Shown here: one piece after another, positions 4,080 through 24,969 of the stretch
How the letters are laid out: each line of letters opens with the position of its first letter
Position numbering within the stretch: position 1 is the first letter of the stretch
IMG/VR virus record: IMGVR_UViG_2718218136_000006
Origin: a virus
Taxonomy: Duplodnaviria; Heunggongvirae; Uroviricota; Caudoviricetes
Strand: one strand, 5' to 3'
DNA: 25,778 nt
The notes under the pieces: generated by a model
Seen by the model: the letters and a program-made list of their open reading frames with translations, nothing else
What the model was told of the DNA's origin: nothing
The model's database searches: none
Position numbers and translations under genes: made by a program

Positions 4080-4467
4080 AACCCCCACCTCGCAGATGCG
4101 GGCGCTGTGTAATGGAAACAAAAAATGGCCACCAGCGGCCCGTAAAAAACACCCCGTCAAAAGCACCGGCATCCGCAGATGCCCTTTGCGTGGCGTTATT
4201 TGATGCGCGCCAGATGTGGCGCAAAGAAATGAAATAAGCCTTATCGAAAATTAAGGTTAATTTGATGATTTAAACCACTTCTGAAGCTTAGTAGTATGAA
4301 CATGTCCCCAGAAGGGGCCAATACTTATTATTCTTCATGGACTTTGTCCCGCGGTCTTAATCCGACGACCGCGCTACTTTTCACCCTCTCGCAAATTGCT
4401 ATCTAAAGGACGTTGTCCCACGAGTATTCCTGGATGCTCGTGTCTTTTTTTGTCCTGAGAAAGGAAT

Positions 4468-6863: not shown

Positions 6864-7076
6864 CTAACAGGATGCTCTGACTCGCAATTCATCCAGCAGT
6901 TTATCATTTCCCATAATGTCACTTAACCTCATCGGTAAAAAAATTGCCTTTCGCCCATTACGATACATCATTGATTTTTGGTTTTCAGGGAAGTAATCCA
7001 TTTCGACTATAACTGACAGGTCATCACGACGTATGACTGCGTATTTGCTACTAAATAGTTTCTTTATTTTTTCCAC
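6864..7076 (-). CDS. hypothetical small protein (about 70 aa from GTG 7074-7076; ORF track extends to 7115)
   Basis: GGAGG 4 nt upstream of an internal GTG; no ATG start available; left edge of the AT-rich island. Confidence 0.3.
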   Translation of the reverse strand: MEKIKKLFSSKYAVIRRDDLSVIVEMDYFPENQKSMMYRNGRKAIFLPMRLSDIMGNDKLLDELRVRASC

Positions 7077-7963
7077 GATGCCTCCAAGTTTATAAGTACA
7101 AGAGGTTATATCCACATAGAGACAAAAATATTAATCTTAAAAATATTTATTTCACGCCGTATATTTGTTTGTTTTATGCGCAGGCACAATGACTTTTATT
7201 TATTGTTATGCATATAATCAAATAAGTGATTGTTTTTTGCTCTTCAGATTCAGCAGGCAAAATGCATAAGGGCTGAAAGTTCTCGCATATAATACCTAAT
7301 TTACTATCACTATATTCTAAGCACTTACCAGGTGATTAGGAACGGAACCCAGTACCGTGCGAATTTTAATTATGTGCTGGGACCAAACGGTCTGAAATGT
7401 CTTCATTGGTGACGATGATTACTCTTACTTTTTGATTTTAATATTCCGGCAATAATTTTAATAAAAATCTGTTTTAACTCTGCATTTTGCTGATTCTCCG
7501 AAGAAACTATCCATCTCTACGAGGAGATCAAATGTCGTTTCAAATCAGTATGATGAGTATAAAAATCATGCCATAAATAGAAAACTAATTCGTCTGTATA
7601 GCAGTAATATTTCTGAAAATTAGTAGGATACTGTGGTAAAGAAATTCATTTCCAAGTAATTGGTAAACGCATTTGATTTGATTTTTTGTATGGGCTGTAC
7701 TGGCTAAATAACATCCGATACTTGCCAGCACTAGCGATTGCTATTGATGAGAACAATAGTGGCATCCGGCAAAGCATTTTGTAGGGGGGTATCAAGCGGT
7801 GCTAACGCATTGCGGTAAAAATTCTGTCACACTTGGCGAGCAGGCATAGAGATGATCTCATTGAATTGGTTGCAATCACAAAACACTATGCCTGCCTTTT
7901 CTATTCGCCCATTGCTGGGGAGTCCACAGCACTACTGCAGCTTTTTAGTACGATGAACAGCTA

Positions 7964-8087
7964 TTAAGTAATTTCAGAGGTATCTATCACTTTCTCAGGA
8001 GTTGTAGATAACAATTCTTTCATACGCTGATCTTCGGGAGCACGAGAAGACAGGTGTTCTAAAAACTCACGCCATTGACGCTTTGCA
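7964..8087 (-). pseudogene. orphaned 3' end (37 codons plus stop) of the GHKL ATPase gene, cut off by IS10
   Basis: Reading across the 9-bp duplication, the ATPase frame continues without a stop for 37 codons (QWREFLEHLSSRAPEDQRMKELLSTTPEKVIDTSEIT) to TAA at 7964-7966. Confidence 0.7.
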
Positions 8088-9416
8088 CTGAGAGATCCCC
8101 TCATAATTTCCCCAAAGCGTAACCATGTGTGAATAAATTTTGAGCTAGTAGGGTTGCAGCCACGAGTAAGTCTTCCCTTGTTATTGTGTAGCCAGAATGC
8201 CGCAAAACTTCCATGCCTAAGCGAACTGTTGAGAGTACGTTTCGATTTCTGACTGTGTTAGCCTGGAAGTGCTTGTCCCAACCTTGTTTCTGAGCATGAA
8301 CGCCCGCAAGCCAACATGTTAGTTGAAGCATCAGGGCGATTAGCAGCATGATATCAAAACGCTCTGAGCTGCTCGTTCGGCTATGGCGTAGGCCTAGTCC
8401 GTAGGCAGGACTTTTCAAGTCTCGGAAGGTTTCTTCAATCTGCATTCGCTTCGAATAGATATTAACAAGTTGTTTGGGTGTTCGAATTTCAACAGGTAAG
8501 TTAGTTGCTAGAACCCATGGCTCCTTTGCCGACGCTGAGTAGATTTTAGGTGACGGGTGGTGACAATGAGTCCGTGTCGAGCGCTGATTTTTTCGGCCTT
8601 TAGAGCGAGATTTATACAATAGAATTTGGCATGAGATTGGATTGCTTTTAGTCAGCCTCTTATAGCCTAAAGTCTTTGAGTGACTAGATGACATATCATG
8701 TAAGTTGCTGATAGGTTTCCAGTTTTCCGCTCCTAGGTCTGCATATTGTACTTTTCCTCTTACTCGACTTAACCAGTACCAACCCAGCTTCTCAACGGAT
8801 TTATACCATGGCACTTTAAAGCCAGCATCACTGACAATGAGCGGTGTGGTGTTACTCGGTAGAATGCTCGCAAGGTCGGCTAGAAATTGGTCATGAGCTT
8901 TCTTTGAACATTGCTCTGAAAGCGGGAACGCTTTCTCATAAAGAGTAACAGAACGACCGTGTAGTGCGACTGAAGCTCGCAATACCATAAGTCGTTTTTG
9001 CTCACGAATATCAGACCAGTCAACAAGTACAATGGGCATCGTATTGCCCGAACAGATAAAGCTAGCATGCCAACGGTATACAGCGAGTCGCTCTTTGTGG
9101 AGGTGACGATTACCTAACAATCGGTCGATTCGTTTGATGTTATGTTTTGTTCTCGCTTTGGTTGGCAGGTTACGGCCAAGTTCGGTAAGAGTGAGAGTTT
9201 TACAGTCAAGTAATGCGTGGCAAGCCAACGTTAAGCTGTTGAGTCGTTTTAAGTGTAATTCGGGGCAGAATTGGTAAAGAGAGTCGTGTAAAATATCGAG
9301 TTCGCACATCTTGTTGTCTGATTATTGATTTTTCGCGAAACCATTTGATCATATGACAAGATGTGTATCTACCTTAACTTAATGATTTTGATAAAAATCA
9401 TTAGGGGATTCATCAG
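8088..9416 (-). mobile_element. IS10 copy 1 (1329 bp), flanked by 9-bp direct duplication CGCTTTGCA (8079-8087 and 9417-9425)
   Basis: Ends CTGAGAGATCCCCTCATAATTTCCCC (inside end) and ...TCATTAGGGGATTCATCAG (outside end) recalled as IS10 termini; exact 9-bp flanking repeat read from sequence. Confidence 0.95.
8101..9309 (-). CDS. IS10 transposase, 402 aa
   Basis: ORF track; protein MCELDILHDSLYQFCPELHLKRLNSL... recalled as the IS10/Tn10 transposase. Confidence 0.95.
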   Translation of the reverse strand: MCELDILHDSLYQFCPELHLKRLNSLTLACHALLDCKTLTLTELGRNLPTKARTKHNIKRIDRLLGNRHLHKERLAVYRWHASFICSGNTMPIVLVDWSDIREQKRLMVLRASVALHGRSVTLYEKAFPLSEQCSKKAHDQFLADLASILPSNTTPLIVSDAGFKVPWYKSVEKLGWYWLSRVRGKVQYADLGAENWKPISNLHDMSSSHSKTLGYKRLTKSNPISCQILLYKSRSKGRKNQRSTRTHCHHPSPKIYSASAKEPWVLATNLPVEIRTPKQLVNIYSKRMQIEETFRDLKSPAYGLGLRHSRTSSSERFDIMLLIALMLQLTCWLAGVHAQKQGWDKHFQANTVRNRNVLSTVRLGMEVLRHSGYTITREDLLVAATLLAQNLFTHGYALGKL

Positions 9417-11284
9417 CGCTTTGCATCAGACAGAAGGTCATCCCAAGTTAATGTATACATTTCTTGTTCTCTCAATGTTTTCAGTTTCATATTTAACGTT
9501 GCATTTCTCTTTAAAAAATCATCAGCAACTAGATAACCGGAAACTCGCTTGAATGGACTTCCTGTTGCAGAGTCTAAATAAACTCTGAAAGTATTAACAT
9601 ACTCCTCAAAGCGATTGATGTGATCTTTATCTATTTTCAGCCCTGGCCTCATGAATTCAAGTACAAGCAAATGTTCACCACTTGAAAGAACTAAGTCAAC
9701 CCTTCCTTTAAAGCTTGGATCGTGTTCAATGTCTGATTCTTTTGCTGCTTCTCTAGCGATATGCTGGACATTTTTCTCAATAGCATAAGTCTCCCATTTT
9801 GGAGCTATCAGCCAAGGATTCTTCGCAATATAGTCTCGAACAGCATTTTCTAATTCTTTAGTGCGTATTCTAGTCTCAAGACCACTTATAGTATCAAGCT
9901 TAGCTTTAACTGATTCTGCTGTGTGTAAAGCCTGAATTGTATTTGCTTCGATCAATATCTCAAGCAATTTCGTTTCATCCATATCAGGAACGGAAGCAAC
10001 GCTTCTTATAAGCTCTTTTAGACGCCCTCCCTCCCATGCAGTGAGGATAGAGTTGCCTATATGCCTAAATTGCTCTGCACCGATTTGTTGGATTGATGCA
10101 ATTCGTTTCAAAGCCATTATAACCGTTTTTTTCTCTACACCTAGTTTATCTAGCCTACTTCTGAAATCATCAATTTTACTTTCAATCAGTTTGGTTTTTT
10201 CATCTGCCCGCCGATCTTTCCAGATTTTTAATAATTCGCGAACACGTTTCTGTCCCCACTCTTCTAATTTGGCAAGGTGGTGACTACTCCAATTCAATCT
10301 TTGTCGTTCAGTAGAAATCACATCATCATTAAACTCATCCAAATAATCAGCAATTACAGCCCCTGTCATATATTCAGGACCATTTTGACTTGGCAACCCT
10401 CCAGTCAAGTTAAACATAAACGGCCTTTGTGCTAATTTTTTGTGAGCGTAAATCGAGATACCTTGCAACTCATCATCCTTGATTGTTTCTTTTAAGAAAA
10501 ACACTCTCCATTTTATCTCATAACCATCAACGATTTCTTTTCCATACCCCAAACTGTCAATCTCCGTAAGAGAATCAGGTTTTTCATCTACAGTATAATC
10601 TTTTGGAAAACTATATTCTGCAGTGGCAAGAAAATTTTCGACTGGCATGGGGGTATTATTAATACGAACTAAAAATTCATCGCCGCCAGAATTGATCGCA
10701 AACCTTCTCGCCATAGATGTAGCAAAAGAAGACTCATTTAACAATCTATTTATTTTCAATGACTTAAGTGTTACTGTTGTTCCATGATTTTCTTTTTCTA
10801 ATTCTGAAGGGCCTGTGCGGAAGGTCACATCAATAGCCATGCTTTCAGTTTTAACGTAGTCATCTGACGATCTAATCTTATTTATATCCAAAGTAAAACT
10901 AGTTTTTTCACCTGTTTCTTGGCTAGTAGTACAAATTTCTATAATCTCAGCAATACCAAAACCAGCAAACTTTCCGATACCTTTTCTTCCCATTAAGTCT
11001 CGATTGAATAATTTCGACTTCGCTACAGGATTATCTTTCCTTTTATCAAAACCAACCGTAAGAAATTTCTTTTGACATTCTTCAAATGTCATTCCAATAC
11101 CATTGTCTTTTATAACAATAGTTCTATTTTCATGCGTGGGTAGTGTAATATTAACTTCGGTTGCATCCGCGTCCCAAGCATTAGAAACCATTTCAGCTAT
11201 TGCTGCTGTTGGACTTTGATACATTTGAATACCTAAATGATCAATTATCCTACCATGAAAATTTAGAAATAGTTTATTATCCAT
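9413..11284 (-). CDS. MORC/MutL-like GHKL ATPase (HATPase_c-type N-terminus) with large C-terminal region; truncated to 623 aa by IS10, original about 660 aa
   Basis: Bergerat-fold motifs read directly: EMVSNAWDA (N box), IKDNGIGM (G1), GRKGIGKFAGFG (G2). ATG 11282-11284 overlaps MTase stop by 8 nt. Stop codon 9413-9415 lies inside the IS10 end. Confidence 0.75.
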   Translation of the reverse strand: MDNKLFLNFHGRIIDHLGIQMYQSPTAAIAEMVSNAWDADATEVNITLPTHENRTIVIKDNGIGMTFEECQKKFLTVGFDKRKDNPVAKSKLFNRDLMGRKGIGKFAGFGIAEIIEICTTSQETGEKTSFTLDINKIRSSDDYVKTESMAIDVTFRTGPSELEKENHGTTVTLKSLKINRLLNESSFATSMARRFAINSGGDEFLVRINNTPMPVENFLATAEYSFPKDYTVDEKPDSLTEIDSLGYGKEIVDGYEIKWRVFFLKETIKDDELQGISIYAHKKLAQRPFMFNLTGGLPSQNGPEYMTGAVIADYLDEFNDDVISTERQRLNWSSHHLAKLEEWGQKRVRELLKIWKDRRADEKTKLIESKIDDFRSRLDKLGVEKKTVIMALKRIASIQQIGAEQFRHIGNSILTAWEGGRLKELIRSVASVPDMDETKLLEILIEANTIQALHTAESVKAKLDTISGLETRIRTKELENAVRDYIAKNPWLIAPKWETYAIEKNVQHIAREAAKESDIEHDPSFKGRVDLVLSSGEHLLVLEFMRPGLKIDKDHINRFEEYVNTFRVYLDSATGSPFKRVSGYLVADDFLKRNATLNMKLKTLREQEMYTLTWDDLLSDAKR

Positions 11285-12325
11285 AATCCGCCTCGTTTTT
11301 AGTTATATGTTCTTTGATAAGTTCAGCATGATGCTTAATGAATTCAGGGGGCAATGCATTCCCTATCATCAAAGCAGCCTTGTCTTTACCAAATTGAATA
11401 GGAAAATAGTAATCACTCGGAAAAGTTTGTAATAATGCAGCCTCTCGAAGAGTTATTGCTCTATCTTGTTCAGGATGTAAAAAACGACCTTTTGAAGGAT
11501 TAGTACATCCACTCGTAATAGTTGGAGCTACATCATCCCACCTCATACGACCGTAAACATCGCGAAAACCATTTGGATATCGTTTATGACATGGCAGCCA
11601 ATACTCGTAAGGAAGTTGAGAGCGGCTTCCCCCATCCTTAGGAATAAGACTTATAATTTTTTTAACCTTCTCAGTTCTTCTTTCTAATATATTGTGCAGC
11701 GGATCATTGCTATTTTCAGGTCGAGCCAAATGGCCTATTGCATCGCGCACAGTTATTAAATTACTATTTTTTTGAGCACGAGTAAGCTCTCCGTATCGCG
11801 AAGCAAGTAGTACCATGCGCTTACGTCTTTGTGGCACACCAAATTTACTAGCATCTTCAATTAAAACTGAATTATCATCGATATGATAACCCAATTTCTT
11901 AAGCTCCGAAGTAAACATGTTTATTCGTTCGTCAAATGCCAAAGCTGGTACATTTTCAACCATTACAACTTTTGGAAAAAAGACTTTAACAAAATCTAAA
12001 AAATTAAAAATAAGTTCATTTCTCTCATCAAAGACAGCTACTGTTTTATTTTTTGTTCTTAACGAAGAAAATCCTTGACATGGTGGACAACCTGCCAACA
12101 AATCCAGTTCACCTTGCTGAATTTTTAATTGTTTCATTAATTCATCTGGTGATATATTTTTATATCCCCATTTATTAAGTTAACATCCGGATGGTTGATT
12201 CTATAGGTTTCAGATACAATAGCTTCTTTTTCGATTGCTGATATGACATCAAAGCCAGCCATTTTTAGACCAACTGTCAAACCACCAGCGCCACAAAAAA
12301 GATCAATTGCTTTCATTTTATGCAT
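11277..12325 (-). pseudogene. Dcm-family DNA (cytosine-5) methyltransferase, split by a -1 frameshift in an A5 run (T5 on plus strand at 12157-12161)
   Basis: 62-aa ORF carries motif I (DLFCGAGG) and GDIK; 286-aa ORF carries motif IV (PCQGFS), ENV, and C-terminal GNALPP. Adding one A restores a continuous GDIKNISPDEL...ELDLLAGCPPCQ reading. Confidence 0.8.
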
Positions 12326-12361
12326 TCCATTCCATCATGTATACTATGAATCTAATCGAGA

Positions 12362-12390
12362 ATCATATGAAATTGATAGGCTTTTTACAA
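12362..12390 (-). promoter_or_regulatory. candidate sigma70 promoter for the MTase-ATPase operon
   Basis: On minus strand: TTGTAA (12385-12390), 17-bp spacer, TATGAT (12362-12367), about 40 bp upstream of the MTase start. Confidence 0.35.
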
Positions 12391-12718
12391 TCTTTATCAT
12401 CTATTTTTATTGTCTTATGTAATTTTCTTGGTTATTGGTGGAATGTAATCTCATCTGATATCCTATGTCCTAATAGATAGCAATTCTGTATGAGCTTTTA
12501 TTGCCCTCATCAGACGCTTCCTTTATGAAGTTGTTCCGAGCAATGCAGCATCGCATTTATCACTTCTTTTATGTGGCTTATGTGTCACGGCGTTGTTGCC
12601 ATCAAGGCCAGCGAACATTCCGTGCCTGTCAAACGCCGTGCAAAGCTCGTTAAACGCCCACGTCCGAACTTCGGCAAGGAAGGCATTGGCGCGGTCAACT
12701 CCTGGTAGCCAATCCTGC

Positions 12719-13141
12719 TCACTGCGCCGCCCCCTGAAAATGCCCCTGATAGAATGCCAGCACACGCTGCATAACTTCGCTCTTCCGGCACTCGCGACAG
12801 ATTATGTTCATACGCCTGTCATAGCGGCGTATTTCTCCGTCTGGTAATGACCAGATAAGGTCAGGATCAACCACAACCGTTTTTTTCACCTTTGCCCTGG
12901 ATAGTTTTTTGCGGGCGTTTTTCCAGTCCTTACGAGCCTGTTCAGAGGGAAATAACCCATAGCCAGAGTTGTATACATCGCCACTGGCAACCAACTCTCT
13001 GGCAAGAATGCTCATCAGATATCTTGTCGCACCTGTCTTGGCCTCCAGTTGCCTTAACGTCTCGCGCCCACTCTGGCGTACCAGCTCAACAACCTGCTCC
13101 TTAATTTTTTCACGCTCTTCCTGTGTAAAAACTTTTGCCAT
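12719..13141 (-). CDS. hypothetical protein, about 140 aa
   Basis: ATG 13139-13141 behind GGAGG; ORF track start at 13156 is a TTG. C-terminal end overlaps other open frames (see findings). Confidence 0.45.
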   Translation of the reverse strand: MAKVFTQEEREKIKEQVVELVRQSGRETLRQLEAKTGATRYLMSILARELVASGDVYNSGYGLFPSEQARKDWKNARKKLSRAKVKKTVVVDPDLIWSLPDGEIRRYDRRMNIICRECRKSEVMQRVLAFYQGHFQGAAQ

Positions 13142-16271: not shown

Positions 16272-16610
16272 ATGGTTCATGAAGATAAAGCGCGTAAAGA
16301 GTTCGCCAGTAGGCTTGCGCTAGCCTGTGAAAACGCTGGTTATGAACAACATGGAAGGCAGGCAGAAATTGCCCGTCGAATGAAATTAACACCAAAAGCG
16401 GTTAGCAAATGGTTTAATGGTGAAACAATTCCTCGCCGAGAGAAATTAAGGGAATTAGCAACACTCATTGGAACAACACCAACCTATCTTTTGGGAGAGG
16501 ATACAGAAGAAAGTGGACAGATACGTTTCTATCAGGAGTTAAATCCAAGACAAAAATCATCATTGACCTTCTGGACGAGCTCCCTGACAGTGAGACAGAT
16601 GAACTTTTAA
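16272..16610 (+). CDS. racR: RacR prophage repressor (XRE-type HTH); 112 aa as read, possibly frameshifted near 16552-16556 with a displaced C-terminal frame to 16689
   Basis: ORF track; HTH GRQAEIARRMKLTPKAVSKWFNG; see findings for the alternative frame. Confidence 0.75.
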   Translation: MVHEDKARKEFASRLALACENAGYEQHGRQAEIARRMKLTPKAVSKWFNGETIPRREKLRELATLIGTTPTYLLGEDTEESGQIRFYQELNPRQKSSLTFWTSSLTVRQMNF

Positions 16611-23640: not shown

Positions 23641-24969
23641 CTGAGAGATCCCCTCATAATTTCCCCAAAGCGTAACCATGTGTGAATAAATTTTGAGCTA
23701 GTAGGGTTGCAGCCACGAGTAAGTCTTCCCTTGTTATTGTGTAGCCAGAATGCCGCAAAACTTCCATGCCTAAGCGAACTGTTGAGAGTACGTTTCGATT
23801 TCTGACTGTGTTAGCCTGGAAGTGCTTGTCCCAACCTTGTTTCTGAGCATGAACGCCCGCAAGCCAACATGTTAGTTGAAGCATCAGGGCGATTAGCAGC
23901 ATGATATCAAAACGCTCTGAGCTGCTCGTTCGGCTATGGCGTAGGCCTAGTCCGTAGGCAGGACTTTTCAAGTCTCGGAAGGTTTCTTCAATCTGCATTC
24001 GCTTCGAATAGATATTAACAAGTTGTTTGGGTGTTCGAATTTCAACAGGTAAGTTAGTTGCTAGAACCCATGGCTCCTTTGCCGACGCTGAGTAGATTTT
24101 AGGTGACGGGTGGTGACAATGAGTCCGTGTCGAGCGCTGATTTTTTCGGCCTTTAGAGCGAGATTTATACAATAGAATTTGGCATGAGATTGGATTGCTT
24201 TTAGTCAGCCTCTTATAGCCTAAAGTCTTTGAGTGACTAGATGACATATCATGTAAGTTGCTGATAGGTTTCCAGTTTTCCGCTCCTAGGTCTGCATATT
24301 GTACTTTTCCTCTTACTCGACTTAACCAGTACCAACCCAGCTTCTCAACGGATTTATACCATGGCACTTTAAAGCCAGCATCACTGACAATGAGCGGTGT
24401 GGTGTTACTCGGTAGAATGCTCGCAAGGTCGGCTAGAAATTGGTCATGAGCTTTCTTTGAACATTGCTCTGAAAGCGGGAACGCTTTCTCATAAAGAGTA
24501 ACAGAACGACCGTGTAGTGCGACTGAAGCTCGCAATACCATAAGTCGTTTTTGCTCACGAATATCAGACCAGTCAACAAGTACAATGGGCATCGTATTGC
24601 CCGAACAGATAAAGCTAGCATGCCAACGGTATACAGCGAGTCGCTCTTTGTGGAGGTGACGATTACCTAACAATCGGTCGATTCGTTTGATGTTATGTTT
24701 TGTTCTCGCTTTGGTTGGCAGGTTACGGCCAAGTTCGGTAAGAGTGAGAGTTTTACAGTCAAGTAATGCGTGGCAAGCCAACGTTAAGCTGTTGAGTCGT
24801 TTTAAGTGTAATTCGGGGCAGAATTGGTAAAGAGAGTCGTGTAAAATATCGAGTTCGCACATCTTGTTGTCTGATTATTGATTTTTCGCGAAACCATTTG
24901 ATCATATGACAAGATGTGTATCTACCTTAACTTAATGATTTTGATAAAAATCATTAGGGGATTCATCAG
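23641..24969 (-). mobile_element. IS10 copy 2 (1329 bp), flanked by 9-bp direct duplication CGCTTTACC (23632-23640 and 24970-24978)
   Basis: Same termini as copy 1; 9-bp flanking repeat read from sequence; same orientation as copy 1. Confidence 0.95.
23654..24862 (-). CDS. IS10 transposase, 402 aa
   Basis: ORF track; protein identical to the copy-1 transposase. Confidence 0.95.
   Translation of the reverse strand: MCELDILHDSLYQFCPELHLKRLNSLTLACHALLDCKTLTLTELGRNLPTKARTKHNIKRIDRLLGNRHLHKERLAVYRWHASFICSGNTMPIVLVDWSDIREQKRLMVLRASVALHGRSVTLYEKAFPLSEQCSKKAHDQFLADLASILPSNTTPLIVSDAGFKVPWYKSVEKLGWYWLSRVRGKVQYADLGAENWKPISNLHDMSSSHSKTLGYKRLTKSNPISCQILLYKSRSKGRKNQRSTRTHCHHPSPKIYSASAKEPWVLATNLPVEIRTPKQLVNIYSKRMQIEETFRDLKSPAYGLGLRHSRTSSSERFDIMLLIALMLQLTCWLAGVHAQKQGWDKHFQANTVRNRNVLSTVRLGMEVLRHSGYTITREDLLVAATLLAQNLFTHGYALGKL

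Follow-up and report, generated by a model that had tools for sequence, protein, structure and literature searches.

An interrupted C5 methyltransferase gene in an Escherichia coli Rac-type prophage very probably reflects a homopolymer base-calling error beside an IS10-truncated restriction gene

A C5 DNA methyltransferase gene carried by an Escherichia coli prophage of the Rac type is split by a frameshift in a run of five A residues. The prophage, which extends from trkG to intR, makes up the window (i.e. the whole stretch of 25,778 nucleotides that was analysed), and the frameshift is a true property of this sequence as given. Comparisons with other copies of the gene and with near-identical genomes make it very probable that the A5 run is a homopolymer base-calling error in the assembly and that the gene is intact (i.e. 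A6) in the organism. Whichever base count applies, the restriction-modification module containing this gene is compromised, since an IS10 element truncates the partner gene of the methyltransferase, a lesion that was overlooked by the initial annotation.

Frameshift within the methyltransferase gene

The methyltransferase coding sequence is divided between two open reading frames (ORFs) as follows.

12137..12325, minus strand: N-terminal fragment (62 aa when counted from the first ATG) of a C5 DNA methyltransferase, containing motif I (FCGAG) and GDI
11277..12137, minus strand: C-terminal methyltransferase fragment of 286 aa in the adjacent frame, with motifs IV-X intact
12157..12161, minus strand: A5 homopolymer (T5 on the plus strand), the apparent site of a -1 deletion, with A6 in every relative

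The A5 run is located within the minus-strand sequence GGGGATATAAAAATATATCACC (window 12169-12148). The N-terminal fragment ends in five out-of-frame residues (IYHQMN tail) and has a length of 59 aa if started at the RefSeq-annotated start codon of the relatives (window 12316). At window 12135-12139, the 62-aa ORF ends and the 286-aa ORF begins within the sequence TAATG, in which the stop codon and the ATG overlap. In a search with the Pfam profile PF00145 (C5 DNA methylase), the 62-aa ORF matched positions 1-52 and the 286-aa ORF matched positions 57-323, and insertion of one A produced a single match to positions 1-323 of 324 (E 1.1e-55; 189.7 bits as compared to a cut-off of 22), indicating that the two ORFs are adjacent frames of one gene, as the initial annotation had stated. 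An intact methyltransferase from a relative scored 155.2 bits against TIGR00675 (dcm), for which the cut-off is 100.65.

The positions of the conserved motifs agree with the further proposal that one base has been lost from an A run separating motif I from motif IV. The break falls just past the GDI motif, with motif I (FCGAG, residue 7) upstream of it, and motifs IV (PCQ, 79), VI (ENV, 121), VIII (QRRKR, 163), IX (TLRE, 289) and X (GNALP, 319) are unaltered downstream of it. Motifs I and IV are in different frames in the window as given and in one continuous frame in 24 of 24 other copies of the gene. One extra A had been predicted to restore a continuous ...NGDIKNISPDELMKQLKIQQGELDLLAGCPPCQGFS... 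and this was the case, with the repaired protein being identical at 346 of 346 residues to the methyltransferase of strain CH4797 (i.e. WP_201751821.1) and no other change being present in the gene.

Other copies of the gene

The methyltransferase gene was present in 18 of 5,426 complete E. coli genomes, all of which match the 1251-base query with 1252 bases. A single 346-aa methyltransferase is annotated in each of these 18 genomes, as is the pairing of this gene with its restriction partner. The A6 run was read directly at the site for CH4797 and H9, and a full-length comparison of I2, EC21, EC17CM7 and XH989 detected the same one-base difference from the window (i.e. A6). A6 was also present in three IMG/VR contigs, one metagenome contig and two Logan contigs (L006 and L007). 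Together with the 18 complete genomes, these contigs constitute the 24 other copies, every one of which has A6 and an intact gene, with no polymorphism in tract length. Homologues were also compared for the two-ORF arrangement, as suggested by the initial annotation, and it was not conserved in any of them. Among the full-length homologues listed, each is a single chain of 341-391 aa, except for a partial sequence of 273 aa and an entry of 282 aa.

No exact match to the A5 allele was detected in IMG/VR viral contigs, GTDB species-representative genomes or JGI metagenome contigs, of which the GTDB representatives are uninformative as the A6 allele is absent there too. Similarly, the exact 286-aa, 62-aa and 59-aa products were not found among the called genes of public assemblies. 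A broader exact-sequence look-up located the 59-aa (WP_213054780.1) and 286-aa (WP_213054779.1) products on one NCBI contig only, which is 5,134,536 bp in length. This contig also encodes the IS10-truncated 623-aa partner protein (ANW27468.1) and is presumably the source of the window itself.

Differences between the window and its close relatives

The closest relative of the window is CH4797, to which it aligns in three blocks interrupted by two copies of IS10. With the IS10 copies excluded, the 22.3 kb of aligned sequence contains no substitutions and the following three single-base deletions, all of which are in homopolymers.

12157-12161: deletion 1, T6 to T5 on the plus strand, in the methyltransferase gene
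16552-16556, plus strand: deletion 2, A6 to A5, in the prophage HTH repressor gene
4314-4317, plus strand: deletion 3, G5 to G4, in the intergenic spacer separating the holin gene from tRNA-Gly

Runs of five or more comprise 4.3% of bases, giving a probability of about 8e-5 that three random positions would all be inside such runs. Five close relatives, obtained from Sweden and China and comprising human and chicken isolates with one host unstated, are each exactly 22,305 bp in length over this region and differ among themselves at 10 substitution sites with no indels. The branch leading to the window, with no substitutions and three indels, is significantly different from the clade, with 10 and none, respectively (Fisher exact p=0.0035). 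Such a pattern of differences, composed only of indels, is the signature of homopolymer under-calling. The annotation of the close relative XH989 lists recE (NZ_CP102679.1, 17719-20319) as a pseudogene that contains an internal stop, indicating that genuine inactivating changes do occur in this prophage clade and do so by substitution.

The two companion deletions

The A6 to A5 change at 16552-16556 shortens the HTH repressor from 139 aa to 112 aa (ORF 16272-16610, plus strand). The repressor gene is divergent from a cro-like/ydaT operon, and its counterpart in K-12, RacR, is essential since it represses ydaS-ydaT (PMC5700377, PMC5700373). The A5 allele of the repressor gene was absent from IMG/VR, where A6 was found in at least 120 contigs. 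The exact 112-aa product recurred only in eight other contigs, each of which has between 2 and 19 single-base deletions as compared to CH4797, and in several of these contigs neighbouring genes (e.g. a DnaC-like gene and ydaT) are visibly split. A base-calling error that has arisen repeatedly is thus the probable source of the A5 repressor allele.

The intergenic G4 allele (4314-4317) differs from all of the close relatives, yet was found in eight IMG/VR contigs. It was thereby ruled out that all three indels of the window are unique alleles. The prophages carrying G4 in IMG/VR are only about 95% identical to the window around the site and so cannot explain the presence of G4 in a background that is otherwise 100% identical to G5 genomes. 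The natural occurrence of G4 does place a limit on the argument, since some homopolymer differences may be genuine.

An HgiDII-family restriction-modification cassette

The methyltransferase gene is followed by a partner gene, annotated as 'ATP-binding protein', with the following location.

9413..11284, minus strand: candidate GHKL-ATPase restriction enzyme of the BbrUII/HgiDII family, 623 aa as compared to 660 aa in relatives

The stop of the methyltransferase gene and the start of the restriction enzyme gene overlap by 8 nt (11277-11284), an arrangement that suggests translational coupling of the two genes. The N-terminus of the partner matched PF13589 HATPase_c_3 (E 9.8e-24, residues 25-169), and comparison with the PDB produced weak matches to the N-terminal domains of MutL and Hsp90. 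The NCBIfam model NF050001 (BbrUII/HgiDII) matched residues 13-634 with an E-value of 2.5e-89 and a score of 300.6 bits, which is below the 550-bit equivalog cut-off. PADLOC models for Type II systems matched both the partner (REase_II, Type II restriction enzyme; E 1.2e-52) and the methyltransferase (MTase_II; E 4.5e-81), and a homologue with 60% identity to the methyltransferase is annotated as 'modification methylase HgiDII'.

Taken by their sequence matches, the two genes classify as an HgiDII-family Type II restriction-modification cassette, a known kind of system. The order of methyltransferase then restriction enzyme and the overlapping stop and start are as in HgiDII systems, and the repaired methyltransferase is a complete Dcm-type C5 enzyme. 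The recognition site of HgiDII is GTCGAC; the specificity of the present system may differ from this sequence, as the partner is below the equivalog cut-off. A second difference is that the restriction enzyme in the window is without its last 37 residues due to IS10. R.HgiDII combines a GHKL domain at its N-terminus with a C-terminal domain whose fold is unassigned (PMC2441816), and the partner resembles it in having a GHKL N-terminus and an unassigned C-terminus.

The GC content of the cassette and its downstream spacer (window about 7000-12500) is 31-39%, whereas the prophage (replication) genes on either side have about 50%, indicating that the cassette is horizontally acquired cargo. The cassette sits between DUF977 and DUF1367 genes, and other Rac variants hold different genes at this position (e.g. 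'ATP-dependent nuclease' and 'P-loop NTPase').

IS10 insertions

Two identical copies of IS10 in the same orientation were located in the window.

8088..9416, minus strand: IS10 copy 1, 1329 bp, 402-aa transposase, 9-bp target duplication CGCTTTGCA, at the 3' end of the restriction enzyme gene
23641..24969, minus strand: IS10 copy 2, 1329 bp, 9-bp target duplication CGCTTTACC, splitting the integrase gene intR

Copy 1 deletes the last 37 aa of the restriction enzyme (623 aa as compared to 660 aa) and provides the stop codon. The 156-aa junction product formed by copy 2 in intR is also present in the draft assembly GCA_002514385.1. The two copies flank 14.2 kb of prophage in an arrangement resembling a composite transposon.

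Three Logan contigs encode the 623-aa form of the partner protein that results from truncation by IS10. One of these, ERR1880019_364 (i.e. L007), extends 25 nt into IS10 with the same junction and orientation as in the window, is identical to window 9392-13039 except for the presence of A6, and encodes an intact 349-aa methyltransferase. A lineage with the IS10 junction of the window therefore exists with A6. Independent reads with six A residues, which the initial annotation had named as a refutation, are thus represented only indirectly, through the Logan assembly of ERR1880019, which may be from a different isolate than the window.

In a second contig, SRR13808302 (i.e. L006, about 6870-6896), IS10 is inserted at exactly this site but is reversed in orientation, the same 623-aa product is encoded and the methyltransferase is intact. 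This background has 11 mismatches, which together with the opposite orientation of IS10 indicates an independent insertion. The site in the restriction gene may be either a hot-spot for IS10 or one where disruption of the gene has been repeatedly tolerated or selected.

Origin of the A5 run

The initial annotation had left open whether the frameshift was a genuine mutation or a homopolymer error, and the comparison with near-identical genomes favours the second of these. An error would account for the three indels, the lack of substitutions, the unique A5 allele and the otherwise perfect gene, and it is also favoured by the companion deletion in the repressor and by the A6 run in ERR1880019_364 at the same IS10 junction. 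The missing base was most probably lost as a one-base under-call of A6 by an error-prone read technology or in an unpolished consensus. That this loss occurred in sequencing and not in the cell is what we infer from the pattern of differences. Homopolymer indels are a documented cause of gene fragmentation in long-read assemblies (PMC12007338). The present case resembles the false pseudogenes of long-read or flow-based assemblies in two ways: one base is missing from a run of five or more, in the company of other such deletions and of no substitutions as compared to near-identical genomes, and a gene that is otherwise perfect is broken into two ORFs in adjacent frames. It differs from them in that the attribution comes from the pattern of differences and not from reads.

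The main alternative is a genuine, recent and strain-private -1 deletion, whereby IS10 disabled the restriction enzyme first and the dispensable methyltransferase was then lost by replication slippage in A6. Such an order of events fits with the truncation of the restriction enzyme, which is real and was independently seen in strains with an intact methyltransferase, and a truncated partner would make loss of the methyltransferase tolerable, so that it need not be lethal. The A6 homopolymer is a natural site for slippage, and the methyltransferase gene is free of other lesions, as it would be if the event were very recent. A genuine deletion would, however, require three independent homopolymer deletions without a substitution in 22.3 kb, as compared to the clade norm of 10 substitutions and no indels. 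One of these three truncates the repressor, producing an allele that is found elsewhere only in contigs rich in single-base deletions, and the A5 methyltransferase allele was found in no other public sequence among the collections searched. For these reasons, a genuine deletion is considered unlikely. It is similarly doubtful that the frameshift is real and marks a stepwise decay of the restriction-modification system, beginning with an IS10 insertion at a hot-spot in the restriction enzyme gene, during which residual full-length protein might arise by -1 slippage on A_AAA_A.

A functional split, either through phase variation via the A tract, through -1 ribosomal slippage on A_AAA_A, or as a coupled two-subunit enzyme in which coupling at TAATG allows translation of the 286-aa part and this then reassembles with the 59-aa part, is highly improbable. 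The stop/start overlap at TAATG and the potential of a -1 tRNA-Lys slip on A-AAA to give the exact wild-type ...DIKNISPD... demonstrate feasibility alone, whereas the tract has just 5-6 bases and is invariantly A6 in the other 24 copies, the listed full-length homologues are single chains, the two-ORF form is nowhere conserved and no Shine-Dalgarno-like sequence precedes the internal ATG. As in phasevarion methyltransferases, a homopolymer tract is present in the coding sequence and its length sets the reading frame; unlike in those systems, no length variation was observed among the other copies. The tracts of known phase-variable genes are also far longer than A5 or A6. Phase variation, programmed -1 frameshifting and a natural split enzyme were therefore rejected, given the invariant tract and the lack of conservation of the two-ORF form.

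Implications for the prophage and its host

With a base-calling error as the preferred explanation, the fragments WP_213054779.1 and WP_213054780.1 should not be taken as evidence that the strain is without modification activity, and other homopolymer frameshifts of the same assembly, including that in the prophage repressor, are equally suspect. Were the frameshift true, it would be an ordinary case of restriction-modification decay. The better-supported biological change in the cassette is the truncation of the restriction enzyme gene by IS10, which leaves an orphan-like and probably intact C5 methyltransferase in a Rac-type prophage.
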